A stretch of DNA of 61,894 nt, the filler included, from Dugesia japonica (lineage: Eukaryota), in assembly GCA_001938525.1 (NCBI GenBank). It is 4 parts of 4 records of this genome, joined end to end, with 100 filler letters (N's around TTAATTAATTAA, not from the genome) between each part and the next. Parts side by side here need not be neighbours in the genome. Positions count along the whole stretch, not along the records: positions 42,141 to 52,303 come from MQRL01381500.1; 3 more parts are not named here. One strand, 5' to 3'. A program made the position numbers and the translations under genes. How positions within the stretch are numbered: position 1 is the first letter of the stretch; every line of letters begins with the position of its first letter. The notes beneath the pieces are model-generated. The model had not been told where the DNA came from and searched no databases. It saw nothing but the letters and a program-made list of their open reading frames with translations. Below, one piece after another: positions 27,881 to 60,960 of the stretch.

Positions 27881-27939
27881 TTCTCTCTTGGTATTGAATG
27901 GTGGTATTTTTTTATCCGCCAATTTACTTGGACACTGTA

Positions 27940-32090: not shown

Positions 32091-32092
32091 GA

Positions 32093-34570: not shown

Positions 34571-34616
34571 TGAAACAAAACAAAGCCCCCAAGTACTGCA
34601 ATTGAAAATCAAGTTG

Positions 34617-34718: not shown

Positions 34719-34995
34719 AGAGTTTATGAGTGTTAGAAGAAAAATAAATGCTAGTAAAAATTATATTAATGACATAATTTTTCAGGTTTATATTGGGAAA
34801 ATCTTTAATGATTTCGTAATCGAGGACATATTCATTCAAAAATACATCATTCTTAATAAGCATTTAATTTAATATTACAATCAAACATGCATACCAAAAC
34901 CCATATGTAAAGTAATTTTTAACCCTTGTTTTCACAAAACTAATTTGTTAGTATTGTGTAATAAATTGGTAAATTTAATTTTCATTAATTAATTA

Positions 34996-35800
34996 TAACA
35001 TTCCCTCCTCCTTATATGGCTTTAGCCATTCTATGTTACGAACTACTTTGGTTCCATTTATGTCCATTAACCCGTAATTAATTTCGAGTAATTTATTAAT
35101 AATTCTAAATTAACCTTTAAATTTATTATTCTGTTTATTTCGGACACCAATTTTAATTAACACACGATCATCGATCTTAAATAATCTTTGTGTTCTACGC
35201 TCATTATCATAATTATTTACCCTATTATTAGCATTTATAATCCTTTTAATTTTGTCTCTTAAATTATTTGTCTTTTTTATAAGTTATTTCATCAATAATT
35301 TCATCATTAGTGCTAATTAATCTTTCTTTCAATATTCTCTTGCAAAATATAATTTCTGTCGGTGTAAAGTTGACACTTTTTTGAATGGTTGTGTTAGGTA
35401 AGGCCTCTTCTCATGTTTTTTTTATAATTTATCATTTAAACTAGAAGAAATCCAATCGCGTATTGTTCACAATTGTCTTTCAACTTGTTTATTTGTCTGA
35501 TGATGGTAAGGACTTGAATATTTAATAATAGAATTATATTTAAATGCCATTTTTCTAAAGGAATCTGAATCAAAACATTTACAATGATCTACATTAACTA
35601 TTTTTAATGCTCATATTTTAATATCAAATCATTGATAATAATTTTTGTGATAAAACTTTCATCTTGAGAACAAATAGCCTTTAATACAATATACTTACTG
35701 AATTGGTCCCCAAATATCTATATAAATACTTTGAAAAGTTTCTAATTCATTAATCTTTGTACATTGGTTTCTTTGCTTGTTCTTTGGTTTTTATGGGTTT
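34996..35800 (-). mobile_element. Ty3/gypsy integrase 3' fragment with PPT and LTR start
   Basis: YSSPYHHQTNKQVER..TIRDWI; AAGGAGGAGGGAA-TGTTA at 35013-34996. Confidence 0.8.
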
Positions 35801-36222
35801 AAATTTCTTTTAAATACGTAATTATCAGTCAGTAAAATCAATCATTTGACTATAATTTATACATTATTATATATATTTTTATTATTATATTTTATTATTA
35901 TATTTTATTATTCTATTTATATTTATTATATTTATATTCATTATTATATTTTATCATAGAAAATTAAGGACTTATCATACAAAATACAAATTTTACCATT
36001 AGAAAAGTTTGGATATAGAAAATATTTAATAGAGTTAATCTAGTCACTAATTATACCGCCTATATTCTATACATAGTCATTTAATGTGCTTAATTTTTCT
36101 ACTTTTTATCAATTTTCACTCATCTTTCTATCATTTTTCCTACTTTAGTCATTTCTCATCATTTCCTCATATTTCCTCTATTTACCCCTATTTAGCCATA
36201 TTCCATTATTTTCTACCATTTC

Positions 36223-36462
36223 AGTATAATTAAAATGGGCGTAATCGACCCCATACAATTTTTTTTCATTTTTTCGCCGTAGTAAAAATNATCACTTTTA
36301 TGGCTTTTCTATCCAAAAGAGTGAAAAAGGTAAAAAGCGTTTTAAATTGGAAAAATTCTTATAAAATTTGTAAATTTCAATAAATGAGAGATATTATTTA
36401 GAAAACGGCTCAAAAATGAAAACAAATCGCACGAGGTCGTTTACGCCCATTTTAATACTACT
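36223..36462. mobile_element. 240-bp MITE-like element with AGT termini
   Basis: Inverted ends agtataattaaaatgggcgtaatcgacc and agtagtattaaaatgggcgtaaacgacc; no TSD seen. Confidence 0.6.
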
Positions 36463-36776
36463 AAACTTTGATAAATTTACACCATCTTAAATAAATAAGA
36501 TAAATAAAATGTGTTACTATCTTTAGAGTTCCATACATGGAACATTTATTTATAGTAACTATATACAATTCAATTAAATTTAAATGGAATTATTAAATAA
36601 ATTTATAATTATGAGTAAACAATTAAAAGGATTTGAACATCCTCTACAGACTATAGTGGATATTTTCCAACAAAGAAATATTGATATAGAAACACAATTT
36701 AATTATGATAATTATTAATTAAATGGTTTTAAATAAAATTTTTGAGAAAAATAAATATTATAATAAGCCTAAGAAA

Positions 36777-38126
36777 ATGGCTACATCTGAACAGAAATCT
36801 AAGCTTAATTTGAATTATAATAAAGAATTTAAACATGATACATGTATTAAGAAAACTATATATTAAAGATTTCTCCAACATCTAGTTCTATTTCTAACTT
36901 AAATAAATCGGGGGACATTGCTTTACAATCTTTACAATCTTTGAGTCCTTTAGATATTTGTAACGCGCGATTATATTATAAAANNNNNNNNNNNNNNNNN
37001 NNNNNNNNNNNNNNNNNNNNNNNNNNNNNNNNNTTGAAATAACTCTTACTACAGATAAAGATGATATAACTTTAGAAAATAATTTCTTTCCTAATTTATT
37101 TAGTAATGTAAGATTGAAATTAGGTTCAACAGAAGTAGAATCAGTTTTAAATCCAGGAGTTTATTCATCTATGTTAAACTTTATTTTAACTGATTCTGAT
37201 TATAAAAAAGAATATGGAGAAATGGCTGGATGGATTCTAGATAACAGTGCGGGAACAAACAATGTTACAGGAGAAGATATTAATAATATTTATTATAAAA
37301 GAAAATTATTATATAATGTCACAAAGAAATTTGAACGTTATTTTGATTTAAAATATTTATTCGGATTTCTACAGAATTATAATAGAGTTATACATAATGT
37401 ATTTATCGAATTTATATGCATCAGACAAGTAGAAGACAAACGTCTATTTTATGGAGCAGACAAATCAACAGCTAAATGTAAGCTAACAACAATAGAGTTA
37501 CATATACCTGAGTGGACGCTTATTACAAGATCAGAAGTAAGTCTATTAGAAAGATTAAATACAAATAAATCTATATATGCAAATTATTTAAATAGAATTT
37601 GTTNTGTTATTGATATGGGTGAAGGATCAACATATTCTGTTAAATTAGCAAATTTAGCTTATAGACCAAGATATATTTTGATTGGTGTTAAAAATACAGA
37701 TATTTCTTTTCAAAAGAATAATAATTTATTTATAGTTACAGATGGAACNNNNNNNNNNNNNNNNNNNNNNNNNNNNNNNNNNNNNNNNNNNNNNNNNNNN
37801 NNNNNNNNNNNNNNNNNNNNNNNNNNNNNNNNNNNNNNNNNNNNNTATTTCCTTTTAGTTCATATGTAAATTGCTGTTAAGAATTTAAAGTTAAGCCACA
37901 ACTTAGTTTACAAGATTTCAATAAATTATATCCCATATTTTGTATTGATACTTCAGCACAAGACGATAAATTAGCGATTAATAATGTTAATGTTACTTAA
38001 GATTGTACAAAAGATACAGGTTTCAAAGCCAAATTATATTGTTTAATTCTTGAAAAAAAGAAAATTGAAATGAGATTAAGTGGAGAAACAATAGGTATAA
38101 TAGAAAATGTTAGAGGAGATGTATAA
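36777..38126 (+). pseudogene. Major capsid protein (double jelly-roll, Polinton type)
   Basis: NLNKSG, NNFFPNLFSNVRLKLGSTEVE...NPG..S.M...AGW, LKYLFGF..YNRVI, RPRYILIG, YPIFCIDTSAQ, LYCLIL. Confidence 0.88.
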
Positions 38127-38137
38127 TTTTTATAAAA

Positions 38138-38714
38138 ATGAATGAAAAAAATTGGTATTGTAATGTATGTAATTCTTCTACTTTACTTAAACATAAAGCT
38201 AGACATGAAAGAACGGATTAGAAATCTTAATTCCTCCGTCGGAAGAATAATTATAAAAAGATCNTCTATGATGACTAATTGTAAACCAATATATACATCA
38301 TTGACGATGACTAATCGAAATACTATTAATAAATTTCCTTGGGAGAAAACTGGTGGAATTATTCAATCTTCTAAAGTTACTTCATTATTATTAAAACCGT
38401 TTACTACTAAAAAATATCCTGGTGAAAGACATTTATTTAGACATAGTCATACTGGACCAAATACAAGATTAGATATTAGATTAGATGAAAATAATAATCC
38501 TTTACCAGGAGAAGAACCAATAAATAAAGTTGATTCTGCAACATTAAAACATGATATTGCTTATAAATAAAAAGATTTATGAGATAGACGTATTGATGAT
38601 GTAAATTTAATTCATGATTTAAATAATATTGAAAATCCTTCATTTAAAGAAAAGATTCAAAGAGCTTTAGTTAAATTAGCTATGAAAGGAAAAATATTAG
38701 TTGAGGAGGATTAA
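38138..38714 (+). pseudogene. Zn-finger-like N-terminus plus parvovirus VP1u-like phospholipase A2 domain
   Basis: WYCNVC..KHKARHER, then GERHL..HTGPNTRL...PINKVDSATLKHDIAY...R.DD. Confidence 0.85.
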
Positions 38715-39620
38715 ATAGAGTTTCTAAAGATATAGCTAATCAAAAGATTATTGAATAATCTAAGCAAGAACGCAAAGAAAAAGAGGAAAACGATACTAAA
38801 ATTATTGAACCGCAAGATGATCAAATAAATTATGCATCTAAATTGCACCATGAATATAGAAAAACAAAAAAATTTTTAAAAGTAGAAATACATAATAAAG
38901 ATCACACATGGGGATGCAATATTGAAGATATGGTTAAAAAATCCACCGACCACGAAAAGTTTCGTTATATTTTAGTTTGCATTGATTTATATACAAGATA
39001 TGCTTTTTGCATACCATTGATAAATAAAACTCAAGAATCTTTAAGAGAAGCTTATGAAAATATATTTGAAGAAAATAATAGAATACCGGATTATATTTGG
39101 TTTGATAAAGAATGAGCAATAAAATCAAAATACTTTGATAAATTTCTAAATGAAAATAATATTAAATTATACCACACAGAGAATGAAGTTAAATCAGTTT
39201 TTGCTGAAAGATTAATAAAATATTAATTAATATTTTACATCAATTGGCAAACAGGAATGGAATAAAGCATTATTAGATAAAATAGTTAATGAATATAATA
39301 ATTCAGTTCATAGCAGTATTAAGTTATCACCAAAAGAAGCATCAGAAAATCCCGAGAAAATAAAAGATATAATTAGTCAGCATAATCATGAGAATGATAA
39401 TATAATAAATAAACAAAGNNNNNNNNNNNNNNNNNNNNNNNNNNNNNNNNNNNNNNNNNATAAATTTGAAAAAGGATATACAACAAAATTTACTAATGAA
39501 ATTTTTATAATAACTAAAGTTTATCATACTAAGCTAATTACATATGGAATAACTGATTTAAATAATGAAGATATATTAGGAAGGTTTTATGATAATGAAT
39601 TACTAAAAACTAATTTCTAG
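38705..39620 (+). pseudogene. Retroviral-type (rve) integrase of Maverick
   Basis: KLHH, RYILVCIDLYTRYAF, IWFDKE, KSVFAERL, YNNSVHSSIKLSP, FEKGY...EIFII...GRFY. Confidence 0.93.
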
Positions 39621-39629
39621 GTGAATTAC

Positions 39630-40447
39630 TAAAATAAATTTTCAATAATCTCTTATTTTTCTCAATCTAAATAAATATAATTATATTTATCTTTGCAGTG
39701 ATTTCCAATAAAATTATCAAAGGATAATTTATCTGGCTTTATATTACTAATTAAATCTTGATAAACCATATCTTTATCTCTTTTGTTTAACTTGAAAAAT
39801 ATATAACAATTAGAATTATTTATTTATAATTATAGTTATTTTATTATAATTAAGTTTGAGAGATATAAATAACATTAGAATTATTATGTCTCCCTCGAGT
39901 AAAATATGATTTCTGAATATCTTGATTTTTCATATTTACTACATCGCCAAATATGACTAAATTCTTTTTATTTTTAGGAAGATTATCACAATAAATAATA
40001 TCTTCAGGTTTATTAGANAATGTAACATCAATTTTATTTTCCTCATTTATATATTCATTTTTGTTTTGTATATCAGAATTAATAATATTTTTTATACCAT
40101 TCAACAATACTATATGCAGTATTTACTTCATCTGGTATTCTGTCTTGATTATTAAATATATTTAAAATAACTTTCTTAGTTAAATTATTCTCTAAACCTT
40201 CTTTTAATATTTGTAATTTAATTTGATTTATAGTTGTAGAATAAAATATTAAATTGTTATAATCCATAAAATTATCAGCTAATAATATCTTCATTAATAA
40301 TACATTCTTTCCACAACCAGAATAACCAATAATTAATAATCTAAAATTATTCGGTAAAAGTTTATTATTAAATAATGTTTTATTTTTATTCCAAATTGGT
40401 AAGTCGGACACTTTGTGTCCTGTTGATGAAGTCAAATCCGTGTTCAT
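39630..40447 (-). pseudogene. A32/FtsK-like DNA packaging ATPase
   Basis: Walker A IIGYSGCGK, degenerate Walker B LVIFGD, YFTRGRHNN..VIYISQ. Confidence 0.92.
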
Positions 40448-40466
40448 TTTATTATTTTTAAAAATA

Positions 40467-41033
40467 ATGACTAAAATAACTGAAATTGAATGAAAAGAAT
40501 TAATAGATTCTAATAAATAAAAATCTGTTTTAATAAATAATGAAAAATATTGGATTGGTAAGAAAATTAAAGAAGCAGTTAAAAATGAAGAAACTGAAGA
40601 AGGAGGAATATTACCATTATTAGCTTTGATTTCTTTTATTGCAAAAGCCGCAGCGGTTGTAGGCGGATTAGGAACAGCAAGCGGGAGGAGTAGCAACAGC
40701 TTTTGCAAAAGCTAGAAAAGTTTCAAATTTAGGTGTAGAAAAACAAAAAGCTCAAGAGGAATTAAGACAATTAAAAGAAGGGGGGAATAAAATTATTCAG
40801 CTATTTAAAGGAAAAGGCATCGTTGAAAGTTATAAAGGTAAAGGAATTTATTTAAATCCTTGTCAAGGAAAAGGAATATATAATTTTCTAATGAATTTGA
40901 TTAATCAATCAAACTTACCCGATTCAGTAAAATCAACAATAAATAAAACAGGTAAAAAATTAAAATTAGGCGGCATGGTTAAAGTAAAAGAATCAAAACA
41001 TAGGTTTTTGGAATATATATGAGACCTTATTAA
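40467..41033 (+). pseudogene. pX-like virion core/membrane-active precursor
   Basis: EGGILPLLALI..AKAAAVVGGLG resembles adenovirus pX GG(F/I)LP. Repeated GKG(I) motifs and a GIYMRPY end. Confidence 0.7.
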
Positions 41034-41051
41034 ATAAATAGATATTTAAAA

Positions 41052-41878
41052 ATGTATGAAAATAGAATTACTTTATTAAAACAATTATTCAAAGAGCAAG
41101 ATAAATATAATAATCAAGAATTATCTGAAAAAAACTGAATCAATCATTTTAAATGATGTTTTAACTCAACAACAAACACCTACATTAAAAGCTTTAGAAA
41201 GAATAGATAAAACATTATTAACAACACAACTTGCTTCAATTGAAAATACTAAACAAACTAAACCAGCTATTAAAGATAAAAAAGGAAAATCAAGAACAGC
41301 AATCATTATTAATTGATTTTGATAATTATAAGCCGGTTGATATGAAACAAGATATTACTAATTCAATAACGAAAACAATTAATCCTACATTTACAATTGA
41401 AAAAATANNNNNNNNTAATTATAGAATTATAACTATTAATGATCATTCCTTTATTCTTTATAAAAGAAACGGAATGTCATATTTTTATTCTAAAACACAT
41501 AACTTAGAAATTATATTTACAAATGATTTAGAGAATTTAATTTTAGGTAAAAACTCAAATAATAAAGATGAAATTAAGAAATATTTAAATTATGCTTTAT
41601 CTAATGACGAACCAATAATTCAAGAAAGAACTGGAATACAGACGAATGTCTTAAGGCAAAGCCTGCGAAGCCCAATAAGTCATTTAAATTCAATTAGTGA
41701 TGAAGATGATGACGAAAATCCTATTAATCTATTTATTGAATTAAATAAATTATTTGCTGCACAAAAAGCTGGACATAATAATGTTTATCTACAAATTAAA
41801 AGTATTCTTAGTAAATTAAGAACTTATCATTTGATTTCAACAGATAAATATAATTATCTTTTAAAGAAAATTAAATAA
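41052..41878 (+). pseudogene. Conserved Maverick ORF (PZ-like C-terminus)
   Basis: Ends NPINLFIELNKLFAAQKAGHNNV..IKSILSKL...LI, matching the Maverick (D/N)P..L..L...AG helix motif. Confidence 0.7.
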
Positions 41879-41909
41879 TAAAAGATTTTCAATTTTTTAA
41901 GCAAATAAA

Positions 41910-42040
41910 ATGGAAAAAGAAATCAAAAAGCTAATTAATTTAATGAGTTCAAAATTCTCAACAACTATCTCTGCACAATCAAAACCATCATAATTTAAAA
42001 AACCATTTAAAATTGATTTTCCTACACCTATAGAATTAAA
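41910..42040 (+). pseudogene. Minor capsid protein N-terminus, truncated by gap
   Basis: Homologous to 11614 onward. Confidence 0.8.
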
Positions 42041-42730: not shown

Positions 42731-43759
42731 TTTAGTGACACTACATTTTCTACCAGACATAACATCACCACTATTGTATCCTTGATCAACACATAAATAT
42801 TATTATTTATCACATTACAATTACAATTTATTTCCAAAATCAAACTTTTTTTTCAATTATTTTTGAAAATTTCAATATCGGTAAATATTTTCAAATAATA
42901 AATTGAGCTTAGAAGTGGGGGATCAAAACCTTACCTGGCTACGTCTTTGAATTGTATTCTACAAATTCATATCTCGTCAATATACCAGTCATTTATCGCT
43001 ATCTTTGGATTCTAATAATTTTATTTTCATTTGAGAATGCACTTCATCATGTAAACGATGGATTCGTTTTCTCTTTACGCGGTATATGCGCAATTTGTTG
43101 AATGCTTAATGGAGAATGATTCCAAATAAAATCTCTGAATAATCGATAGTTCTTTAAACTATTAATATCATCTTTTGTTCCACTGCAAAGTTATACTCTT
43201 AATTAAAATAATAATACTAATTAATTTTTTAATAAATTCACTGTACGCGCAAGCTAATTTATGTTCTAGAATATGTTCTAGAATATGTTAAATATTATCA
43301 TAATTAAAGTTTTCAAAATCCATTGTTATTTTATCCATAAATATTAATTTTTTTATTCTTTTTGTTTAATTTATGACATGGAAAAAACAATTGTATTTTG
43401 CGTTAAATAATGCATTCATAATCAAGAAAATTAAACTATACAGTTACAGGATGTTTATTGTTATAAAACATTTATTTTTAAATTAAAATTTCAAATGATA
43501 TTTGTCTTCTATTGTTAAATGAAAAATTTAGCAACGAAATAATAGTCTTTTGTTTATAAGAATACGAATAAACTTTTTTATTCAATTATTTTTATTATAA
43601 TAAAAGAAGGTTTTCATTTCATTTCGAAAGAAATAAATAAAATAGAAAGAATGATAACGGATTTGGGTTTTAATTATTTATTAAAAAACATTATTTTAAC
43701 AAATTTTGATGATCAAAATTTTTTTAAGATTTTATAAATATTGTTTAATTCTAAGGTTC

Positions 43760-44430
43760 CTAGAGACATGTTATAATAAATATGATTTAATCCAGAACAA
43801 AAGAATACTGGATGACAATTTTTGAGAAAAAATACAAAAATTGTTGTGTAACTCAAGAGTTAAAAGAGTGTGTGTATATATGAAAGATAAATACATTGGA
43901 GCGAAGTAGGTGGACCGATGCTGGAAACAAAAAGGCAGAAATTTTAATACATGGTTCTTATAGTATTAATAAGACTAGACGAGTAAACAATACAAAAAGC
44001 CATTTTGGAGAACTGGGTATTGAGATTTAAATGTCCGAGAGAGATAATATTAGATTGGAGAAGCACCTTTAATTCAAGACTTTGGCCAGAATTTCTGAAG
44101 AAGCTGTACATTAAACTCTGTTTCTCTTACTCGATATCGCCACAGTACAAATATACAAATTAAAAGGCAGTTTTGGAAAATTCGAAAGTTGATTAATGTA
44201 ATTTCAAATTAGGCAAAACTTTCTATGGATATAATACCTGCCATGAAAACTACCAAAGAACGAAAACTGTAAAGTGCACAGCGCAATTTGTATTCAAAGA
44301 TCATCATCATATAACTAAAAGAATTCATTACAGACAATATGCAGTACAACATATGTATGAAAAACGCTTATGAAGATTAATATGGAGAAACTTAAAAAGT
44401 TCTTAAAGGAGAGAGTTATAAGATAAGGTA
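43760..44430 (+). mobile_element. Ty3/gypsy integrase fragment
   Basis: WVLRF.CPREI.LD...FNS and FSYSI.PQY...QI.RQF remnants, like the other gypsy copies. Confidence 0.6.
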
Positions 44431-45096
44431 AAATCTTTTTAAAAAGAATTTGAAATTTAAACTTATATAATTATATTAACCAATTATTTTATACTAACTA
44501 GTATTAATTAATTGTATTAACTAATAAATAATTTTAATTAGGAAACTTATTTTAATGTAATATGCTTATATATGTTATATTTTTATAATCTCTTNNNNNN
44601 NNNNNNNNNNNNNNNNNNNNNNNNNNNNNNNNNNNNNNNNNNNNNNNNNNNNNNNNNNNNATCTCAATATTTTATTGAAAATTCTTTATCAAACATGTTA
44701 TGAATTTTCATCAGATAGACGGCTTTCACTCGATACTTAAATATTTCCAGTCAATCTATCAAAAAGTGAAGATAATTAAAAGTTTGCCAATCATAGTCCG
44801 CTCGAAATTTTATGTACTATAAAGGAAGAAGTGGAATTTAAGAATAAAAGCAAAAAAGTTAAATTCATTGTGATAAAACAGATAAGTCCAAATCTAATAG
44901 GAGGAATGGAATTTTAGAATAGAATATAAATGCGGATACTAAATAATAAGATGATTAACAAGTTAAACTTATATTTGTAATAAAATAGCAATATTAAAAA
45001 AATCAAATTCATTTTAATATTTTGAATATTTATTTATAAGTATTCAGTAATTTGAATTTCGATATATTTAAATATTACTATAATTTAAATATATCA

Positions 45097-45117
45097 AGTA
45101 GGTAGATAGTAGCGCAT
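45097..45117 (+). repeat. 21-nt terminus motif (AGTAGGTAGATAGTAGCGCAT)
   Basis: 20/21 identical to 5656-5676; C-rich tract and short direct repeats follow. Confidence 0.65.
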
Positions 45118-45484
45118 ATAAACAATCCCTCCCTCCGCTGGCAAAGTGTTTATAAATTTAGTGTTTAAGACATTGGACCTGTTTATGAATTTAGAGATTT
45201 GACCTTTTACCCATGTGCAAATGTACGCGTTTGACCTTTGGACCTGTTTAAGTATTTCAGGTTTTTATTTTAATTTAATTGTTTGATTTAATTATCATCT
45301 TTTTGTTGAAGAAGTCATATTTAACTACTTACAAATTATAAGAAGATAAAGTTATTTAAAAATAATTCTGAAAAATTATAAGATACATTTATGATGCATA
45401 TGTGGTGCGATTGTTATATTTAACTACTTTTAAATCATAAGTAGATAAATTATTTAAAAATGATTAAAAAAATTTTTAAAAATG

Positions 45485-46314
45485 TGTTGGGATGAAACAC
45501 TTATATAGAGAAGGAAATCGAAGCTAGAGATCGGCATATATAAAGGGGGTAAATCAAAGGAAATCCGTTAGAAACAAATAGCGTTGGAAGAAGTAATATA
45601 AAACCTCAGGTCAACCGACAATCAAACTAACAATGAACATCTACCGAAATAGAAGGAAAAAGATTTTTAATGGACAAATGTAACCTGCATCAAAACAATA
45701 ATTAGAAAATAATATTAAATAATATTAAATACGAGGAAAAGTAAATTTAAAGAAGGATCAATTAAGGATAAATTATTAATTAAATTTGAATGGAAATTAA
45801 AACTAAATTGGACGAAAATCTGTTTTTTGTGAATAACTTCACTCCGTAAAATCAGGAAGAGTTCTGGTAAGAAAATCCAAAAAGAAAATAGTAAGAAGCA
45901 TTGAAATTTGTTAAGAAGAAAATCTTACCACCATCCAGAGGGTCGCTGTAGGGATTTCAAGATTGGGCCAATAAGGAACCTGAAAATAAAAATAAGATAA
46001 AGCACAATCAATCACATGAGGTTTTAAAAATAACCGCTAATTGTAACTCTAAAACAATTTTAGAAAATTGGCACTAGAACCAATAGGAAGACAAAAATTC
46101 CGGTTAAAAATAACCAACGAATATAAACAAAGTTGGGATGTGAAGAAACATCATATACAAGGAAGCATGAAATTAGCAGATCATCACCAAAACACACTAC
46201 TAAATCTCTCGTAAAACTAACAAACAATTCGTTAATTCTCAAAAGAAAAACCCTCGGCAGAATTTTGTTACGATATCAACAAACAGAAATCGACGTGATC
46301 AGTTATCGCGCATC
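45485..46314 (+). mobile_element. Probable short LTR (45485-45632) plus decayed gag/protease remnant
   Basis: TGTTGG...CTAACA ends with internal TATATAAA. Downstream YHHPEGRC knuckle-like and KFRL remnants. Confidence 0.45.
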
Positions 46315-47039
46315 ANNNNNNNNNNNNNNNNNNNNNNNNNNNNNNNNNNNNNNNNNNNNNNNNNNNNNNNNNNNNNNNNNNNNNNNNNNNNNNNNNNNNN
46401 NNNNNNNNNNNNNNNNNNNNNNNNNNNNNNNNNNNNNNNNNNNNNNNNNNNNNNNNNNNNNNNNNNNNNNNNNNNNNNNATGTTATGATAAATTAAAATA
46501 AATTAAATATAATTTTAGCTCTAATTATTAATTTATTAAAAAAAAGAAAAACCTTTTATTAACAGTGAAATGAGTTTTTAATTTTTTTAGTTGTATCAAA
46601 TAGGTTATCTAAGAATCATATGTCCACCACCGGATCTACAAACTGAACGAGTTGGTTGAAGTTAATCCAGGTATGAGCGTGAGTAATTACCCCAAAATTC
46701 CCTATAAATATAAGCAAATAGTCACTCATTATAGTGACTTAAGTTTCCGTTGTGGTTAATTTCGCTATAGTAACCAGGATGAATCAATCGAGGTACAATA
46801 ATTCTTTTTTGCATGCACACATACTGTCCTTTACCTATAGTGTGTAATACTAGTCATTACAGATTTTTTGGTGCTATGCAATTACTCTCCGCAATTATTT
46901 AATTTGCGAACTTCGGTCAAATCATTAAGATTTACAACAAGAATATTATTCTATTATTACGAGGGAAAATACAAAATTCAGCGCAACTCCCAATTTTAAC
47001 AAATTCGAGTAAAAGATAATCGAAAACTGATTACACCGA

Positions 47040-47580
47040 TATAATATCATTATCATCATAAAGGTTGTTGTCACTCTTCCTGTTATTAATATTATCACTA
47101 CTATTATTAATATTGTCATTTTTAGTATTATTAATATTATGACTATTACCGTTATTAGCATCTTCATTATTGATATTCTTGAAAATAGTATTACTGACTT
47201 GTCGTGATAATTGTTATTAGTATTGATGGTATGATTACTATTATTTTTTCTATTGGCACTATGATTATTAATATTGTTATCCTGGTTATAGTTATCCGCA
47301 ATACGACTATCCTTACTAAAATTACTATTAACATGGCTTTCTTTAGTATGGTTCTTGAAGGATATTATCCTAATCATTTTAGTAAAGGATTCTGCCATTA
47401 CTGGTGATGCTAGTAGCTATTATTATACGTTCTAAGATTACTATTTTCATATATTAATACTGTCGATTATTGTTATATGTATTGCAACTATTATTAAATT
47501 TATTATTATGATCAACGCTAGCATTATCCTGATATCATTAATATTGTTATAATGGCGACCGTCAGGTTAGTAATATTGTG
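47040..47580. repeat. Degenerate (ATT/AAT)n low-complexity tract
   Basis: Gives Ile-rich or Asn-rich translations with scattered stops. Confidence 0.7.
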
Positions 47581-47657
47581 CGGTAACAAGAGAAAATTTT
47601 TTTTGTTGTTCAGCCCTGAATTTAATAATTACCATTGACGGTTTAATTCTTTAGTTC

Positions 47658-47840
47658 ATGCCAGTGGAGCTACGCCGTACCCTTCGATGGATAAAACAAC
47701 AGCGTCAAACTGCCCGGTTAAGACAGTTAATAGATCATCTATTGACTAAAGGGAAGATTGAGCATCCAGACGAAACGGATCTGTGTTGCTTTGCAGAAAT
47801 GTTCCCCTTAATAACAGGAGTCGACTTAGACGTGGATTGA
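47658..47840 (+). CDS. Orphan ORF1 of cassette (60 aa)
   Basis: ttctttag|ttcATG; AATAAA at 47868; GC-richer than flanks. Confidence 0.6.
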   Translation: MPVELRRTLRWIKQQRQTARLRQLIDHLLTKGKIEHPDETDLCCFAEMFPLITGVDLDVD

Positions 47841-47965
47841 TTCCTTTTGTTGGTATTACTATCATGAAATAAAATATATGTACAACCTTGTTGGCGTGTT
47901 ATAGCTACTTATATAATTTTTTTTTATATTATTTGTAATAATCATTCTCGTTCTTTAATTAGATA

Positions 47966-48314
47966 ATGGAATCTATATGAGAACGTATAATAGATCGGCG
48001 GACTCATTGCCTGAATTTCCGACGACATCTTAACCCCCACAATTTTGATGTGGGAATCTTGGCCGATAGGTCTAATCTGCCCCCGGTGGAGGCCATCGTA
48101 GCCCGAATACAGGATTTCAGGGAGCGACGTAGCCATCATAATTGGACAGCGCCTGACCGGACCCTTGTCACAACCTTCCAGTATCAACCAGTAGCTCCAG
48201 CATTTGCCATACAGGCACTTATCAATAACTTACTCTGGGGGGGTAAGAGAACCTTTGGGTAGCGAGGATTCAGAGAATTCTGCACCCGCAACTGACTCAG
48301 CAACTACTCCTTAG
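47966..48314 (+). pseudogene. Orphan ORF2 of cassette (early TGA, probable indel in G7 run)
   Basis: ttag|ataATG is in frame with ORF 48050-48262. A shifted frame runs to TAG near 48314; AATAAA at 48339. Confidence 0.55.
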
Positions 48315-48532
48315 GAGTCTAAAATTTTTTTTGGTCATAATAAATATCTTGTTGTCTTCAGATTGTTTTCATCATTTTTTTTTGATTTCGAAATTAACTT
48401 TAGGAGCAAGTTGTAAATGTACTATAATAATGTCAGTCAAAAAGATAGCTATTCACTTTATAACGTTTGATTGGTTTTAAAATTCTTTTAGTGCATTCAT
48501 CGTTAAATCGTTCTACAGCTCCTACCGAATGA

Positions 48533-48850
48533 ATGAGGGAACCCATTCAAGACATAGAGCTTACATGGGACCTATATCGACTGGCAAAACGCCGATGGGA
48601 GGCAGAAATAGCTGTTGCCAACTGTAAGGTGGCTCGCTATAAGAAAAAGTGCATCACTTTTAAAAAGATGGCCGAAGCCTCTCACTTGCAGGAGCAAACT
48701 TGGAAGAGACAAGTTGAATCCTTTGCGGAAGTTATCCGGCCCAGCCATGACCGAGAAAATAAACTGGTGGAGAATTTATTGTTCCTACGAGAGAGAATGC
48801 CTCTCGAACCATTGAAGATCGAGAAGGTCACCCAAACTCACCGGAACTAA
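48533..48850 (+). CDS. Orphan ORF3 of cassette (105 aa, coiled-coil-like)
   Basis: Acceptor ttcttttag ends at 48491; AATAAA at 48873. Confidence 0.65.
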   Translation: MREPIQDIELTWDLYRLAKRRWEAEIAVANCKVARYKKKCITFKKMAEASHLQEQTWKRQVESFAEVIRPSHDRENKLVENLLFLRERMPLEPLKIEKVTQTHRN

Positions 48851-48966
48851 CTCGCGATTATTTTTCGTTGTAAATAAATTTGTCACTTTATCTGTCTTAC
48901 GAGTTTATCTTAATGTTTACTTAAATTCTTGTGCCAAGTTACCATATACTAATCTAATTTCTTTCA

Positions 48967-49350
48967 GTGCCACTAGTCGATTTCCCTAACAGTCTTTGCC
49001 GATGCTATCGTATCCTGCGCCGTCAGTTACTGGAGCGACATTTAAAGAGTAAAGCAGATCAGGCCTTTCTTAAACATTTAGCCCAGCAAAACCAACTAAT
49101 AAAAAGGCTGGATTTAATAGTGAAGAAACAGAGTGACCTAGCATCCCAAACCAAGGCTCTGGAAGCAGAAACAAAGCAACTATTACAAAGGAAAATAGAA
49201 TTTCTAAAACAATACATAGCAGACCTTTCACGCCAGATGGGTCAGCCAACTTGGGTCCAATGGGACGACAATGAAGATGTCACTGTCTTCCATTTTTTAG
49301 TGCCTGACGCAGACCAGTGGTTAGACCCTGGCATGCTAGACGAATTATAA
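48967..49350 (+). CDS. Orphan ORF4 of cassette (127 aa, coiled-coil-like, no own start ATG)
   Basis: Branch-like TACTAAT at 48947, tttctttcag acceptor ending 48967, AATAAA at 49361. Confidence 0.7.
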   Translation: MPLVDFPNSLCRCYRILRRQLLERHLKSKADQAFLKHLAQQNQLIKRLDLIVKKQSDLASQTKALEAETKQLLQRKIEFLKQYIADLSRQMGQPTWVQWDDNEDVTVFHFLVPDADQWLDPGMLDEL

Positions 49351-49436
49351 ATGTCATTTAAATAAATGTTTCGAGTATCCTTAGCTTAAATCTTTTGTGT
49401 AAATTAATGGAAAATAGTGAACTCGAATAAAAAGGC

Positions 49437-49610
49437 TTATGGGCGTGCACCTCCCATTAAGAGAGAGGTCAACCACCATATGACGAATACCTGACGCAGG
49501 GACGTCAGGGTAAATTCTTGAACGGGTTTCTCTGAGGGCTGTTTTACCTCAGCCATCTTTTTCCTACTACCCAACTCAGGTGGAACCCCAACAAATGAAT
49601 TTTTTTCCAT
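49437..49610 (-). CDS. Convergent 57-aa orphan ORF with hydrophobic C-terminus
   Basis: MEKNSFVGVPPELGSRKK...RQVFVIWWLTSLLMGGARP*. It spans the GC-richer block and is below the ORF-track cutoff. Confidence 0.4.
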   Translation of the reverse strand: MEKNSFVGVPPELGSRKKMAEVKQPSEKPVQEFTLTSLRQVFVIWWLTSLLMGGARP

Positions 49611-51217
49611 TCATGTTGCACATGCAGTATTTAATAAAAAATTAACACATATACACATATATTAAAGTACTTTGATATATTTTCATTGACTTATGTCATG
49701 ACATTATGTGTAAGTTTTGTAAATTTTCACTGACTTCTATGCAACTTTTGTAAAATTTCATCGTGTTCAATGTAATTTTTAAAAAAATGTTTTCATTGGT
49801 TTACATAGGAGTTTGAAATTTTTTGGGGACTTCAAAATAATTTATAAAATATTTCATCGACTTCTCTGTAATTTATTAAAAATTGTAATGACTTCTATGT
49901 AATTTTTGAAATATTTTAACGACATAAATGTATTACAATTGAAATATGTATGTAAGATAACAAACAAAAGACAATTATGAGAAAGATATATTTAAAACAT
50001 ATACATGTTTTTTATTAGTCACATAAAATTTCAATCAAAATGTCTTAATTTTTCATTTCTTTATCATTTATGACTTTATTTGACAGACAATCAGTCATTT
50101 TATCATCAACTTTATTCTTATTTGTAGGTGTATCAGGCATTTTCTCATCAATAGGAACATAATTTATGGATGCATCAGGTATTTCTTTATCAATAATATA
50201 TCATTTAGTTGGGTATAACTCATCGGTTTTTCTGTCGATTCATCTACATCACTCATTTCTACATCAATTTGTTGAACATCATATACTATTAATAATTAAT
50301 TAACCAATTAATTATTTATATGTTCAATTATATTGTCTATAATTTTATACAAATGCATTACTAATCAGTTTTTAAGTTTATATCAGTCCTTTGTTTATCT
50401 TACATTTTCCTTGCTTAACATATATGTATGATGCACATATGGATTAATATGTATAACATTTTAATATTCCTCCGGTCGACGTTAATATTATTTTACATGG
50501 ATGAGTATATTTGATGTATTATGTGTATTATATAGGTCTATTGAGTTTATCGAGGATACGTAGTTGTATATAACATGTTTATTCTATATATTTAATTGTA
50601 TGTATGAGGATTATTGTAAGTTCTAATTAGTTCAATTAAGTTATTTATATGCACTTAAGACCTATTAGTTTTCTGTGTATAATACCCATTGGTTCTATGT
50701 GCATTGTTAGATGAGTTTTGAGAACTCGGATTATCAAAAACAAAATTTAACTCCAAAAATTGTATTTCAAATAAAAACTATAACCATCATTATTTGTTTA
50801 ATCAGACAAATTAAAACTTCATGCGCTAATGGGAAATTATTTATCACAAATTTAAAAATTTAGATTTAAAACTTGATTTCAATTAATTTGAAAATTTACA
50901 GAAAATTATTATTTTTTAATGACACATCTTTTTAAAATTTTCATAAAATTTCAAAACAAAAAATGATCATTAGTTATTAATATATCCTTTAAAATTTTCA
51001 TAAAAATAACATAAAATTTTCAAACTAAAATCACCTGCTAGTAAATTATTATTTCAAAATCGTCTGAACTTTCAAAACAAAATTTTCATTTCCAAAAGTT
51101 TTAATTTATTTTAATTTCTTAATTAATTCGTGATTTTGAACTTTTTCTAAAAAATATTTTTTAATAACACAATTTCCAATCAGAGAACAAAAAATTTAAC
51201 TCGCTTCTTAACAACTC

Positions 51218-51390
51218 ACATGTATAATTCCAATTGGTTTCATGTGTATAAAATCCAATTGGTTTTCTGTGTATAAGACCCATTGGTTTATTGTTTATAA
51301 GACCATTGGGTATGTAATGTGTATAAGACCCTGTATAGTTTATTGTGTATAAGATCCATTGATTCACTGTGTATAATACCCATCGGTCTC
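51218..51390. repeat. Minisatellite of about 24 bp
   Basis: tgtgtataagacccattggttt-like units, with related units at 50650-50700. Confidence 0.8.
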
Positions 51391-51474
51391 ATAAGTTAAT
51401 AAGACTTTATTAGGTTTATTGTTTGTATTATATGACTTTATATGTTTTTTTGTTTGTATTTTATAACTCTAGAG

Positions 51475-52303
51475 AAGCGTTTCTCAAATTGTGTTTCACG
51501 GAACCTTAGGTTTCCATGAAGCACAAATATGGGTTCCGCCAGTAAATTTTAAAACATAAGTTAGTTAGTGTTCTCAATAGAATGTGTCCAATTCTGCTTA
51601 TTTTAAAAATAACTGTAAGTACAAATGTTTTTGTAATACTTAAACTTTTATCAACTATTAAATTAATTTCAATATTATTTAAGCAACGTCTTGTTCATTA
51701 TCTACAAATTATACTTTGCAGTAAAATATTAGTCAATAGTTCCTCAGCACCAGCCAAATTACGTCGTCATTTTGAAATGAATCATTTGAGATATGAAGAT
51801 AAAGATATTGCTTTTTTTAAAAGAAAACTGGAAGAATATAACAAATCTAACCTTTTCATTACAAAACCCTTTAAAACCAAAGTCTTCTTATAGAGTAAGT
51901 TATTGCATAGCAAGTGTATTGACGTGTGCAGTGATGACACCAAGGCTATGATAAAAAAAAGGCTGGTGTTGTAGCACGCATAAAGACTGTAGCAAAGAAC
52001 TGCACCAGTAGTCACTGCATTCTTCATAGACATGCATTGGTCGCTAAACATAAATCAACTTCATTTAAAACTGTGTTGGATGAAACAGTGCAAATTATAA
52101 ATTTCGTTAAAAGTCCTTCATTAAAATCACGACTGTTTAAATTTTTTTGTGAAGATATGGGTAGTAATCACACGACTCTTCTGCTGCATACATAGGTCCG
52201 TTGCTTATCTTGATGTAACAACCTCGTTAGATTATTTGAATTACGGCAAGAACTTTCAATATATTTTACGGGTGGCAAATTTAAATTATTTGATCGATTG
52301 ACA
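51475..52303 (+). mobile_element. hAT (Buster/Charlie-like) transposon, internally deleted and decayed
   Basis: TIR-like gcgtttctcaa; PAKLRRHF, CSDD..AM, HCILHRHAL, INFVK...SRLF..FCEDMGS.H.TLLLHT.VR.LS. Confidence 0.9.
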
Positions 52304-52403
52304 NNNNNNNNNNNNNNNNNNNNNNNNNNNNNNNNNNNNNNNNNNNNTTAATTAATTAANNNNNNNNNNNNNNNNNNNNNNNNNNNNNNNNNNNNNNNNN
52401 NNN
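52304..52403. other. Artificial contig-join linker
   Basis: N-run with TTAATTAATTAA at 52348-52359. Confidence 0.95.
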
Positions 52404-53190
52404 ATCCTTCTTTATAAGAAGTTTTTTGATCTTCTCTACGTTTTTTTCAAGACTTTATTTGTTTGTATCTTCTAAGATGTAGAGCTGTCATGAACTTTCC
52501 TCTTGGTCTTAAAAGGCCATTTATAAAAATCTTGGTTCTTGTTTCGACTTTCAATAAGACCTCATCACCGACCGCAAATTGTCTTTTGGTTAGTATTTAT
52601 TNNTCTTTCTCTTTGNGTACTCTTTGAGTATTTGTTTTGTACCATTTTTCTCTGCTAATTTTCTTCCCAAATACGATTTTATCAGGAAATGTCCAATCGG
52701 TTTTCTTTATTGTATCATTCAAGTTAAATTCTATCTCTGGTAATACATCCACTCAATCTGAGGTTTTAGTTTCTTTAATTGTTGCATTTATCATATTCGC
52801 ATAGTTCTAAATTGTCTGTCGATTTGTCGATTTGCCGATTTGTGTTAAGATGATACAAACTCGAAACTTGAGGGTTATTCCATGTTCAGCTGCAAAATCC
52901 TTCATTAATTGAGACTCAAATGCTCTTCCACAATCAACTCGAATTTCTCTCGGACACCCGAACTTTAATATCCACTTCTTCATTATTGCTTTCCGTATGG
53001 TAACTTCATGTTGTNNNNNNNNNNNNNNNNNNNNNNNNNNNNNNNNNNNNNNNNNNNNNNNNNNTTTCTCTCGGACACCCGAACTTTAATATCCACTTCT
53101 TCATTATTGCTTTCCGTATGGTAACTTCATGTTGTCTTTTCATTTATATCAAGGCTTTATACCTATTACATTGATCTATTAATAGTACTT
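52404..53190 (-). mobile_element. Ty3/gypsy integrase fragment
   Basis: KWILKFGCPREIRVDCGRAFES...LPEIEFNLN...FAVGDEVL. Confidence 0.85.
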
Positions 53191-53956: not shown

Positions 53957-56900
53957 TAACATGGTGGCAGCAGTAAACCCCGGTGCGATCACAGAAAGAT
54001 TGTTGCCAAAATATTTTGCAGGGCGATGATCTAGAAAAGATTATCAAACGGTGTAAAATAAACTTTAAGGCAAAGAACATCGTTATTAAGATAGATCACG
54101 AACGTTAGGTAACATGTATCCTACATAAAGATTTAATGGAAGCATATGTAAAGATATTCAAGAAAGCGGATGGATATCGAGAGAGATTGCGATTAGCCTT
54201 TGAGAGCATAATAAAAAATTTACAGAATATTGTAAGCTATCAACACTTGAGGTGTTTTTTAAAAAAGTGGAAGATTGGGTCGATAAATATTTAGCAAATG
54301 GAAAGTTGACGAAAGAAAAACTCTTATCAAAAATGCTAATAATTTGTGCAGATTTTAGAAAAGCAAAATAAGAGATTATCATGCAAAAATTAGTGAAAGT
54401 AGAAGATTTAAAAGAAACGTTATCATTGGTTGAAAAAATGGAAAGACGAGAACTTATTAATGAAGTAAAGAGTTATGCGGTTGTAACACGTGGAGAACGC
54501 TTAGGAGTAAGGAGACAAGATATTGAGAGATACAAAAAGAACAGAACCACAGTGTTGGACATGCCATAGTTATGGGCATACAAAAAGAGAGTGTCCAAAA
54601 AATTCTCTTGTTGAATGCTAGACTTGTCACAAAAAAGGGCATTTAAGAGGAAATTGCCCAGATAAGAAAACACCAAAATGTTTTGGGTGTGTTAAGTTGG
54701 GTCATATCAAAAGGATATACATTGAAATTGTATGTAGTAGATGTAAAAGACCGGGCTACAGAGTGGAAAAATGCTATTCGAAACATTAATAAATCTAGAC
54801 TAGATGAGAGAAGATACAATTTTAAAAGCGGACAACAAACTAAAGATTAGAGTCGGGCCAAACCAATTCATGCCATTCAAAAAGTAGATGATGAAGAGAA
54901 TGAAGAAATAATTTCTAATAGCATAATAGAAAATGAAGATCCAAGAAGAGAAGAAAATGGAGGGCTCCACCAGTAGTGGAGTTGGTTAAAGCCATTCATT
55001 AAACGAGATACCGTTTGGATATCATCAAGACACTGAGAAATGGGATGGGACAAGAAAAGTGAGAGAAAAGATTTACAGATTCCAAAAAGAGAAAGTTTTA
55101 ATGATACGGAAGTTAACAAAGCAGAAGTAATAGGAACAAACAAAGAGGAAATAAACGTAAAAATTTCGTGTGATAAGATGCAAGGAGACCGCGCATTTCA
55201 GTGATGATCAAGGTTGAATAGTTTGATTGTTTGTTGGATACAAGAGCAAGAATAAATGTGATGAGCATGAAAGGATTTCATAGACTCGGATAAAAAATGT
55301 TAGAGAAAAGCGAAGAATGATTGCATTGCGCGAATAACAGCTCATTGGAAACGATTGGAAAGATACGTGTCAAAATTCTAGTTTCATAGGTGTGCAAGGA
55401 AGTAACATTTATAATAGTAGATAAATTAACATCAATTTAATTGGTGAAGTGGAATTTCAAAATACCTTTGGGAATCATCTTCAGAAAAAATGCAAGGTAG
55501 ACATCAATAATAATCGAGAAAGATTTGTTTGCAACATCAAGGCAATATTTGGAAGGCAGATACCGACAGGTGAACGATTGAGACATGCAATTGAGATTCT
55601 AGATATAAAAAAGATCATAAACTGACTGCGATTATTCAGAATAATGAGGATGTGTCTATGGCGGATAAATGGGACATTGGATGTAAACACTTAACGAAAC
55701 ATCAAATAATCACTAAAGAAGGTCCAAGCAACATAAAGCCGTATCGCCAACCAATGAATCTAGAGATAAAATTGTAGAGACAATCAATAATCTATATGAT
55801 AATGGTATCATCCAGAAGTGTAATTCGCAATGTAATACGTCATTAATTTGAGTTTGGTAAAAGGAAAAAAGGATATATGATTATGCTTAAACTTTAGGCA
55901 GCTCAATGCAATAACAGAAAGACAAGCTTTTCCTATACCAAATGTTGACAAAATGCTAAATGCTTTGGAAGGTATGCAGTATTTTAGCTCAATTGACTTG
56001 GTAAATGCATACTACCAAGTGGAGGTCAGTGAAGATTCTCAAGAAAAGACGGCGTTTTCTACCAAACAAGGGTAATTTTGTTTCAATAGAATGACTTTTC
56101 GAATTTCAGCAGCACTACGTAAGTTTCAGAAAATGATGAATAAAGTAATCGGGAAAATTAAAGGAGCAATGGTTTATCTATATGATATTCTCATATTTAC
56201 CGAAACAAAGGAGTAACATTATGAAATAATCAATAAAGTATTAACAGAAATTAAGAAAGCTAGTCTAAGAGTTAATACGAAGAAATGTCAATTCATGCAA
56301 AAGGAGATCAAATTTTTATCAGTAACAAAGTGTCAAAACCGATCCAACTTAAATATTAGCAATTAAAAACTTTGGTAAACCAAAATGCCTCAAGAAAATG
56401 ATAAGCAATTTAGGAATATGCAATTACTATCGCAAGATTATTCGAAAAACGCTAGATTGCTAGAAAAACTGTGCAGTGGGCCAAGTAACAAGAAAATTGT
56501 ATGGGCGAATGAATTAAAAGAAGTCTTTAATGGAATGAAAGAAGTACTAATGATGTATCTAATATTATGTTTTCCAGATAAAATAGAAGATTTATTTTGA
56601 ACACGGATGCGAGTTTCTATGCGATAAGACCGTATTATCTCAAAAGGACAACATTTGGCAAGAAGGAGTAATTGCATATGGGTCACACGCATGTTGTACT
56701 ACACGGAAAGAATTGCTCTCAATTGACTACTTTTGTATTCATTTCAGACATTACTTATATGGGAAGAGATTTATACTCAGAACAGATCATAAAGCCATCA
56801 CTTTTATGCTAAATACCAAGAAGCNGATTACATCACAGTTTCAAATCTGGATTAATTATTTGAGCAGTTTAGATATAAATTAGAATATAGAAAAGGATCG

Positions 56901-57110
56901 CTTCATATAAATGTAGTTATCTTGCCAAGTGGTATATGCGATACATGTACACAATATTTAATGTCACATGATGATCCGAAAAGTGAAAAATTAAAATTAA
57001 GGATGTTAAATACAGTAAATATTCAAGAAAAACAAACCAATTTTGGTTAGAATGATGAAAGAACATGGATACCTGATGATAAAGTAGAATTTATAAGTGA
57101 TGCAATGATT
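53957..57110 (+). mobile_element. Decayed Ty3/gypsy element: PBS, gag, protease, RT, RNase H; integrase missing
   Basis: taaca-TGGTGGCAGC PBS, CCHC knuckles at 54551-54775, CLLDT protease, FRQLNAIT, YLYDILIF, TDAS, FILRTDHKAI. Confidence 0.92.
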
Positions 57111-59463: not shown

Positions 59464-60960
59464 ATGACAAATAATATTAGCATTTCTAAAGAATTTCAAA
59501 TAAAGAATGAAGAAAAAATTTGTAAGAATAATTCAGAAATTGAAACTTTATTTTTGAAAAGAGAATCATTATTGCAAATGTCAAATACAAAAGAAGAAAA
59601 AGAAAATGAAATAACAAATGAAAACTTTAGTTAAAATTAATTAAATTAAATGAAAAACATTCAACATCGTTCGTTTTTGATAACAAAAAAGATCAACTTA
59701 TTTTTGAAAATTTTAGAAATAATAAGAAAAATTCAATCAATCAACTAATTGATAAAAATATAGAAAAAAAACAGACAAATAATTCAAAAATTAAATTATC
59801 AAATTTAGAGAATTTAAAAGCTGTTAAAAGATATGATAAAAGAGAAACATTGCAAAGTATTAGTAGTGATTTGAATATATCTTCTGAAACTATTTGGTAT
59901 TGGTTTAAAATTAAAGAAAAATTAGTAAAATCCTGTTTAATAAGTTCTGAAAGTTTAAATGATGAAAATGCAGTAATAAATGAAAATATTGAACAAGAAA
60001 TAATTGAAGAAAATATTTTCACTAGAAAGAAAAGACAGCCAATATCAAAAATATCAATTTTAGATAAATTAAAAGCAATTAAAATGTACGGAAAAGGTGA
60101 AACATTGAAAAGTATTAGTTCGGCTTTCAAAGTAAGTGAATCATCTATTTTACTTTGGTATAATAATAAAGAAAAATTGCAAAATATTTATTTAAAGACA
60201 ATTGAAAATTCTATTGATAAAAGCCTTCAAGTAAATGAAAATAAAGATTTCAATGAAGAAGTAATTGAGGAAAATATTTTCAGTAAAATAAAAAGGGAGC
60301 CAACTCTAAAAATTCCAATTTCAAATAAATTAAAAGTGATTAAAAGATATGAAAAAGGAGAAATATTACAAAGTATAAGTAGTGATTTGAATATATCTCT
60401 ATCAGTTATCTTGTTTTGGTATAAAAATAAAGAAAAATTAGAGAAATTAGGTGTAAAAAGTTCTGAAAATTTGAATCATCAAAATACATTAAATAAATGA
60501 AAATATTGAACAAGAAATAATTGAGAAAAATATTTTCTCTACGAAAAAAAGCCAAAATCAAAAATATCAATTTTAGACAAATTAAAAGCAATAAGAAGAT
60601 ATGGAAAAGGAGAAACATTGAGAAGCATTAATTGCGATTTCAAAATAAGTGAATCAACTATTTTATATTGGTATAATAATAAAGAAAAATATTTATTTGA
60701 AGACAATGAAAAATTCAATTAATAAAAACCTTCAAGTAAATGAAAATAAAGATTTATTTGATTTCAACGAAGAAATAATTGAAGAAAATATTTTCACTAG
60801 AAAGAAACGAAGGCCAAATTTAATAATATCAATTTTAGAAAAAGTAGAAGCAATAAAAAAATATGAAAATGGAGAATGTTTAAAAAATTGTTAAAGATTT
60901 AAATATTCCAAGAAGAACGATTTTCTATTGTTTCATTAAAACGAACAAACTCAACAGAAA
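59464..60960 (+). pseudogene. Protein with five tandem CENP-B/psq-type HTH DNA-binding repeats, frameshifted
   Basis: Repeated R(K)KR..IS...KLK.IK.YEKGE.L.SIS....S.S.I..WY.NKEKL units of about 80-90 aa; no transposase catalytic domain follows. Confidence 0.75.

Follow-up and report, generated by a model that had tools for sequence, protein, structure and literature searches.

A candidate four-gene cassette within a solo-LTR-like unit of Dugesia japonica

LTRs are generally regarded as control regions without coding function, and in repeat libraries they are masked over their full length. MMTV sag and HIV nef each consist of a small U3 ORF, expressed from a spliced message that ends at the LTR poly(A) signal. 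Rows of acceptor-ORF-AATAAA units with ~100-nt spacers are known from the adenovirus major late unit and from nematode SL2 operons; in nematode operons ~100 nt separate the upstream 3' end from the next acceptor. Terminal-exon definition, in which use of an acceptor activates the downstream poly(A) signal, is also well known. The flatworm SL ends in AUG. Trans-splicing occurs in flatworms, where solo LTRs with 4-bp TSDs are usual (PMC4558846). The integrase-site consensus of LTRs is TGTTRNR...YNYAACA, R-U5 is generally more conserved than U3, and R can be as short as 11 bp (MMTV) or 21 bp (RSV) (PMC3601003). In insect ERVs of the springer subclade, env is spliced from an AU dinucleotide and its start codon is completed at the junction (PMC12992720).

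Accessory ORFs in LTR elements are known, and a four-gene LTR layout with separate polyadenylation was not found described. A full-text literature search returned no LTR that carries several genes with separate poly(A) sites; Grohme et al. 2018 with its extended data and Repbase lie outside that search and may describe Burro-LTR ORFs. Excerpts of PMC3846280, bioRxiv 2021.04.23.441226, PMC8532177, PMC13238120 and PMC11410931 show none. The locus described here lies in a window of 61,894 nucleotides, the whole stretch of D. japonica DNA analysed (filler included). Four co-oriented frames, likely protein-coding, lie in a 4.1-kb unit with LTR-type ends (Table 1), and it is quite probable that they form a coding cassette borne by an LTR.

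Table 1. Features of the 4.1-kb unit, in window coordinates
Feature	Position	Strand	Basis
Left TSD copy AATG, 4 bp	45481..45484	.	sequence
Solo-LTR-like unit, 4.1 kb, putative orientation, 164-N assembly gap inside (46316-46479)	45485..49593	+	7-bp TIR + TSD
Left short inverted repeat TGTTGGG, fits TGTTRNR	45485..45491	+	sequence + consensus
TATA-box-like site, 52 nt inside left end, candidate second promoter	45537..45544	+	motif match only
AATAAA and acceptor-like AG, possible decayed fifth junction	46497..46590	+	motif spacing
Low-complexity stretch, Asn-rich, broken across frames	47033..47570	-	8 stops vs 16.8 expected, best frame
ORF1, 61 codons, own ATG 47658, phase 0, AATAAA 47868	47655..47840	+	acceptor 47654
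ORF2 block, own ATG 47966, phase 0, broken, AATAAA 48339	47963..48314	+	acceptor 47962
ORF3, phase 1, begins TG, ATG 48533, 105 aa from there, AATAAA 48873	48492..48850	+	acceptor 48491
ORF4, phase 1, begins TG, 126 open codons, predicted 63-residue helix, AATAAA 49361	48968..49350	+	acceptor 48967
TATAWAWR 49346 and AATAAA 49361, candidate LTR promoter and main poly(A) signal, U3/R border	49346..49366	+	inferred
Terminal segment common to many more copies, candidate R-U5, mildly structured (z -2.1)	49355..49593	+	depth
Right short inverted repeat CCCAACA, fits YNYAACA	49587..49593	+	sequence + consensus
Right TSD copy AATG	49594..49597	.	sequence

The cassette consists of four blocks in series, each preceded by an acceptor-like, pyrimidine-rich AG and followed by AATAAA. 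All four acceptors and all four AATAAA lie where a first-pass annotation of this DNA had placed them, and its distances from AATAAA to the next AG (~90, 147 and ~90 nt) were measured as 89, 147 and 89 nt. The blocks have a GC content of 0.43–0.49, compared with 0.23–0.29 in the spacers (100-nt windows) and 0.26 in the whole window. That annotation had described four GC-richer ORFs; the four blocks are present, but not all are intact, since ORF2 and ORF3 contain stops and ORF4 lacks an early ATG. It had also placed AATAAA within ~10–30 nt of each ORF end, which holds for ORF1 (27 nt from stop to AATAAA), ORF3 (22 nt) and ORF4 (10 nt) but not for ORF2, where the stop at 48260 lies 76 nt ahead of the signal. 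T-rich tracts, proposed as GT/T-rich, are strong behind 48339 and 48873 (top 1% and top 3% of the 183 AATAAA in the window) but middling behind 47868 and 49361 (top 17%). Further AATAAA occur within ORF3 (48758) and ORF4 (49098). To the left, an additional plus-strand AATAAA (46497) and an acceptor-like AG (46590) are 88 nt apart, as in the cassette. This pair hints, by its spacing, at further decayed units, and the openness of the frames around 46497–46590 is not significant.

The layout was compared with composition-keeping block shuffles (n = 1000), with a repeat of the layout defined as a pyrimidine tract with YAG, at least 55 open codons in which a single early stop was tolerated, and AATAAA no more than 45 nt away. 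The 1.85 kb between 47600 and 49450 contain three such repeats, the broken frame of ORF2 falling outside the definition. Three or more were reached in none of the shuffles (912 gave none, 82 gave one and 6 gave two). Outside the cassette the window has 11 such repeats, scattered, on both strands together.

The unit is a multicopy family. In X3, a public run of contigs that may be the source of the window itself, 4067 contig pieces match positions 46480–49900 at 85% likeness. The run has no recorded kind and was treated as DNA, since pieces that match this copy perfectly, including its flanks, have a depth of 9–10. Summed depth does not give a copy number; it is 64–273 left of 47630 (one low-complexity bin aside) and 317–592 in bins that are mostly spacer. 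It rises to 1351–1642 in ORF1, 2514–58,435 in ORF3 and 1026–2835 in ORF4, while ORF2 (572–841) is close to spacer level. The peak falls in the core of ORF3 (48710–48770), which more copies of the family share than any other stretch, so that work on function would best begin there. Across 49355–49584 summed depth is 20,085–37,332, and across 49585 it falls 99-fold, from 37,332 to 375. This drop led to the recognition of the CCCAACA ending at 49593, followed by AATG. One contig departs from the window at 49593, and three joints at 49573, 49573 and 49571 have sides of 21, 21 and 23 nt and so reach the same position, 21 nt being the shortest side given for any joint. The terminus shared across copies is the right end only, the left end lying beyond the 164-N gap and outside the matched stretch. 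Four joints (48768>48944, 48831>48980, 48768>49573 and 49281>49573) place ORF3, ORF4 and the terminus on single contigs. Because these joints unite them in diverged copies, the order ORF3-ORF4-terminus is a family trait. Reads and contigs from diverged relatives agree with the window over short cores of ORF1 (to 47803) and ORF3 (48710–48770), beyond which they differ from it.

Several features bear on coding capacity. GC by codon position is 0.56/0.36/0.45 over 404 codons, a pattern matched in 0 of 5000 shuffles for frames that had been picked for openness. Stops are depleted in ORF4 (p = 0.004) and ORF3 (p = 0.034), and less clearly in ORF1 (p = 0.11) and ORF2 (p = 0.19). The copy of the cassette in the window is decayed, with two of the four blocks broken. 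ORF2 carries a stop at codon 5 (47978) as well as that at 48260, and some other contigs have single-base deletions in it. The stop in ORF3 (48530) lies between the acceptor and the first ATG, and is absent from all five contigs listed at that position, each of which differs from the window there. In ORF4 the first ATG comes no earlier than codon 90 of 126; near its start, 2 contigs have an insertion and 3 a deletion, 3 nt apart, and the two changes together would leave the frame intact. Among the differences listed (40 of 401 rows), 16 of the 18 inside ORFs fall at codon positions 1–2. This is not the third-position excess of selected genes. The excess at positions 1–2 cuts both ways, most differences being private to this copy.

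ORF4 is predicted to fold into a helix at residues 5–25 and a 63-residue helix at 28–90 (pLDDT 73), and is likely a coiled coil; of the earlier description of the proteins as partly coiled-coil, the model upholds that they are partly long-helical. The prediction for ORF3 is four helices at low confidence (pLDDT 54). ORF3 and ORF4 were covered by the searches of large protein sets and of folds. Neither gave a homologue among proteins of near length, Pfam and PHROGs gave sub-threshold coiled-coil matches only, and a search of PDB sequences with ORF3 and ORF2 gave no match. The best scores in the Atlas search (0.82 and 0.90) come with low recognition and are leads only. Fold search had been proposed as a check on the nature of the proteins and returned no match: at E ≤ 0.001 Foldseek found nothing for the ORF4 model in viral and pdb sets or for the ORF3 model in pdb. 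No locus related to the cassette was found in viral, metagenome and prokaryote collections; two candidate loci (L001 and L002) were taken as chance, with seed matches of 11 and 14 residues and nothing further in common.

The 4.1-kb unit that contains the cassette is likely a solo LTR of a Gypsy-like retrotransposon. Its ends match the LTR consensus TGTTRNR...YNYAACA. The 49 kb upstream hold 62 candidate left ends with a TIR of at least 5 nt, one of which combines a 7-nt TIR with a TSD, against 0.005 such combinations expected in 49 kb. GC content is 0.22 in both flanks of the unit versus 0.28–0.42 inside. By self-blastn the two ends of the unit have no direct repeat in common, although the 164-N gap could hide one. 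Because the ends share no such repeat, the unit is read as one repeat and not as LTR-internal-LTR; were an internal region hidden in the gap, the ORFs would still sit within an LTR. No gag-pol, PBS or PPT is attached to the unit, and for this reason we only infer its class and orientation. The unit contains seven TATAWAWR on both strands, and near its right end AATAAA occurs at 49361 and 49426; both motifs are common in the window, AATAAA at 3 per kb. Two GC-rich hairpins at 49490–49550, in the best-shared terminal segment, are candidate packaging or poly(A)-control structures. The right flank of the unit is part of an AT-rich interspersed repeat with units of ~31 nt (49640–49930, 32100–33300 and 16700–17000). 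The first-pass annotation had proposed a multi-gene cargo of unrecognised proteins on a mobile element, which the copy family, the LTR-type ends and the TSD uphold. The carrier, there a mobile element or an endogenous virus, can be specified as an LTR-like unit with integrase-type ends and a TSD.

The surroundings are a field of decayed elements (Gypsy, non-LTR, Polinton, Penelope-like, mariner and hAT), whose names beyond Pfam matches are given by eye. Polinton remains lie 5–10 kb left of the cassette and include frames for a double jelly-roll capsid (Pfam E 3.8e-16), a PLA2-like protein, an integrase-like protein and an A32-like ATPase. A second partial copy, 76–92% similar, is found 30 kb further left (10500–12300). 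A Polinton origin of the cassette was rejected: these remains (36982–42000) are outside the TSD-bounded unit and have no sequence in common with it. Asn-rich inserts have been described in rotifer Penelope elements (PMC3846280). A Penelope origin, suggested by the Asn-rich stretch and by RT N-terminal motifs seen by eye, was rejected as well, as stops in the frame are at chance level (10 vs 11.5) and no RT link was found for 47033–47570. As a candidate Penelope-like RT, the minus frame 46590–47069 gave one spurious fungal repeat (phmmer, 1.84 billion proteins), and the plus frame 46613–47041 gave nothing against longer proteins. The by-eye likeness to an integrase GPY/F module at 46950–47000 has no support from Pfam or protein search. 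Positions 46820–46850 resemble by eye what we take to be a hydrozoan spliced-leader sequence, and no donor follows; an acceptor-like AG followed by TG occurs at 46840. Other decayed elements, mostly recognised by eye, are a Penelope-like GIY-YIG (16319–16696, minus strand), a non-LTR RT with restriction-like endonuclease (7839–10500, minus), a mariner (17920–18285, minus), a hAT (51480–52300, plus) and a Gypsy gag-pol (54000–57000, plus). A 289-codon open frame at 59631–60876 consists of 261-nt repeats, each with a CENP-B/HTH domain (Pfam E 3.7e-10), and is a host gene or pogo-derived. On the minus strand, 29449–29775 looks by eye like a host-gene exon for a fibronectin type III domain, and the elements may sit in introns or the flank of this gene.

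Given these features, there is about an even chance that the frames are accessory genes in a long U3, forming alternative last exons of one shared cis-spliced leader. If the unit is an LTR-borne coding cassette, such a leader in plus orientation becomes somewhat more likely than not. The orientation is suggested by the best-shared 240 nt at the right end, R-U5 usually being the conserved part. These 240 nt start just past TATAWAWR (49346) and AATAAA (49361), a short-R layout. On this arrangement R-U5 would be the last ~240 nt of the unit, and the ORFs would fill a U3 of ~3.9 kb. In a full-length element, the leader would be spliced from its donor onto any one of the four 3' LTR acceptors; alternatively, a promoter at the left of U3 could drive such splicing in any LTR. 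The choice of acceptor would activate the AATAAA behind the chosen block, so that the motifs predict a separate spliced and polyadenylated message for each frame. Three poly(A) signals lie upstream in U3 and would shorten the genomic RNA unless suppressed; unspliced genomic RNA would have to read past these inner signals to 49361. For ORF1 and ORF2 the start could be the ATG that each has 3 nt after the AG. ORF3 and ORF4, beginning with TG after the AG, could take their start from the leader, either through a last A that completes ATG or through an upstream ATG in phase 1. A single AUG-less leader ending in A would suit all four frames, and a phase-1 coding leader would suit ORF3 and ORF4. ORF4 needs an upstream exon because it has no other start before codon 90. 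The leader donor may lie in the missing internal region or in the 164-N gap, and none of the candidate donors within the unit gives the needed phase for all four frames. The small helical proteins would most likely bind element or host proteins; by analogy, they might help in particle assembly or counter host silencing.

Three RNA runs were available, with 10.5 (X4), 13.6 (X5) and 11.6 (X8) million reads, corresponding to ~6, 25 and 25% of the runs. Silenced transposons often yield no transcripts. Reads matching the unit number 16, 133 and 24, respectively, of which 15, 125 and 24 match only in part, none at 99% or more. No read in the three runs crosses any acceptor, none of 15 joints comes from them, and read ends do not pile up. 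Neither this copy nor its near relatives appear to be expressed in these libraries.

The same LTR genes could instead be expressed as an operon, with the transcript cut at each AATAAA and the host SL trans-spliced to the next AG. Three of the four junctions, counting that at 46497–46590, have spacings close to the ~100 nt of operons (89, 89 and 88 nt; the fourth is 147 nt), and the spacers are T-rich. However, ~90 nt is also the minimum that could accommodate a cleavage site, a downstream element, a branch point and a pyrimidine tract. With an SL that ends in AUG, ORF1 and ORF2 would be read in frame but ORF3 and ORF4 would not: there the SL would open frames of 5 and 2 codons, and ORF4 offers no internal ATG until codon 90. 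No loose read end is seen at any acceptor in the three RNA runs. The cis-spliced leader is favoured because the four frame phases fit it better than one SL, and trans-splicing of an operon seems unlikely. A broader form of the idea makes the LTR a small operon in which a left-end promoter serves 4–6 genes, resolved into separate mRNAs by a spliced leader or by a shared leader with alternative poly(A) sites. Hundreds to thousands of solo LTRs would then be dispersed, self-contained protein-coding cassettes, still expressible after the loss of gag-pol, which is equally doubtful.

The unit could also be something other than a solo LTR, if its left end is due to chance or to a misjoin across the gap; the cassette would then be part of the 3' internal region of an LTR element or of a non-autonomous DNA transposon with short TIRs. 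The 164-N gap inside the unit, the roughly tenfold lower depth left of 47630 than in the cassette, and a length of 4.1 kb, long for an animal LTR, all point this way. Ginger elements also have TGTNR ends and 4-bp TSDs, but their TIRs measure 40–270 nt compared with 7 nt here (PMC2836005). In addition, a TIR plus TSD by chance is hardly expected (0.005 per 49 kb), and in six frames of 44661–46315 and 46560–47060 no transposase or integrase was found (Pfam, 12 read-through frames). Even an LTR starting at one of the TGTTGG further right (47848, 47889) would still contain ORF2–4. This origin is accordingly improbable.

Similarly little credit is due to an LTR on the minus strand, with the four genes antisense to it and transcribed from an opposite promoter near the left end. 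Precedents for antisense genes are the plant Tat-clade antisense ORFs and HTLV-1 HBZ. AATAAA occurs four times on the minus strand of the unit versus nine times on the plus strand, so minus-strand genomic RNA could read through, and the Asn-rich frame (47570–47033) is on the minus strand. Extra antisense ORFs are common in plant LTR elements (PMC7264820). However, the depletion of AATAAA on the minus strand is not significant (4 vs 6.0 expected, p = 0.28), and the best-shared 240 nt would become the start of U3, which is usually variable.

That the blocks are conventional exons of a single cis-spliced gene, or a non-coding GC-rich repeat with chance AG and AATAAA, is very improbable: the copy in the window has donor-like GTAAG in phase 1 at 48243 and 48624, two blocks are broken and neither homologues nor transcripts were seen, but every block closes with a stop and then AATAAA rather than a donor, the layout and codon pattern appear in 0/1000 and 0/5000 shuffles, and the ORF cores are more shared among copies than the spacers.

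If the favoured reading of accessory genes behind a shared cis-spliced leader is true, invertebrate LTR elements can reach the accessory-gene complexity of complex retroviruses, and the puzzle becomes how the genomic RNA gets beyond three U3 poly(A) signals. Protein families beyond the reach of database searches would also be added. In a planarian host, such genes may explain the great length of Burro-type LTRs.

Among known systems, the planarian giant Gypsy-like LTR elements Burro/GYPSM1 resemble the unit in their AT-rich invertebrate genome, thousands of copies and accessory ORFs, and Burro LTRs are kilobase-sized too (total >30 kb vs up to 25 kb internal; PMC6431247). However, the Burro accessory ORF lies upstream of the polyprotein, and the description in PMC6431247 on which the comparison rests names neither ORFs inside the LTR nor separate poly(A) sites. 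Terminons of bdelloid rotifers are retroelements that likewise bear several orphan ORFs in one orientation, with coiled coils, but they are Penelope-like, telomeric and hammerhead-bearing (PMC6431247), in contrast to the LTR-type ends and TSD here; for hammerheads, Rfam gave two chance matches (E 4.8–5, 43000–53000) and a relaxed core search no convincing fold. Plant Grande, RIRE2 and Retand (PMC7264820) and the ORF3s of bdelloids (PMC5408684) share family-wide orphan ORFs, some of them coiled-coil, with separate spliced messages. The same sources place these ORFs, one or two per element, within the internal region, in most cases after pol and ahead of the 3' LTR. The springer ERV env also has its start codon finished by splicing, as proposed for ORF3 and ORF4, but it is one large fusogen, and the leader supplies AU rather than a lone A or a phase-1 leader (PMC12992720). 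Turning to viruses and operons, the adenovirus late unit and SL2 operons show a similar row of acceptor-ORF-AATAAA units; the present cassette differs in lying inside an integrase-type terminal repeat, its processing being deduced from motifs. MMTV sag and HIV nef match what is proposed for ORF4, a small U3 ORF with a spliced message that ends at the LTR poly(A) signal. They belong, however, to vertebrate retroviruses and are single ORFs with no extra U3 poly(A) signals, compared with four or more ORFs in the unit described here.
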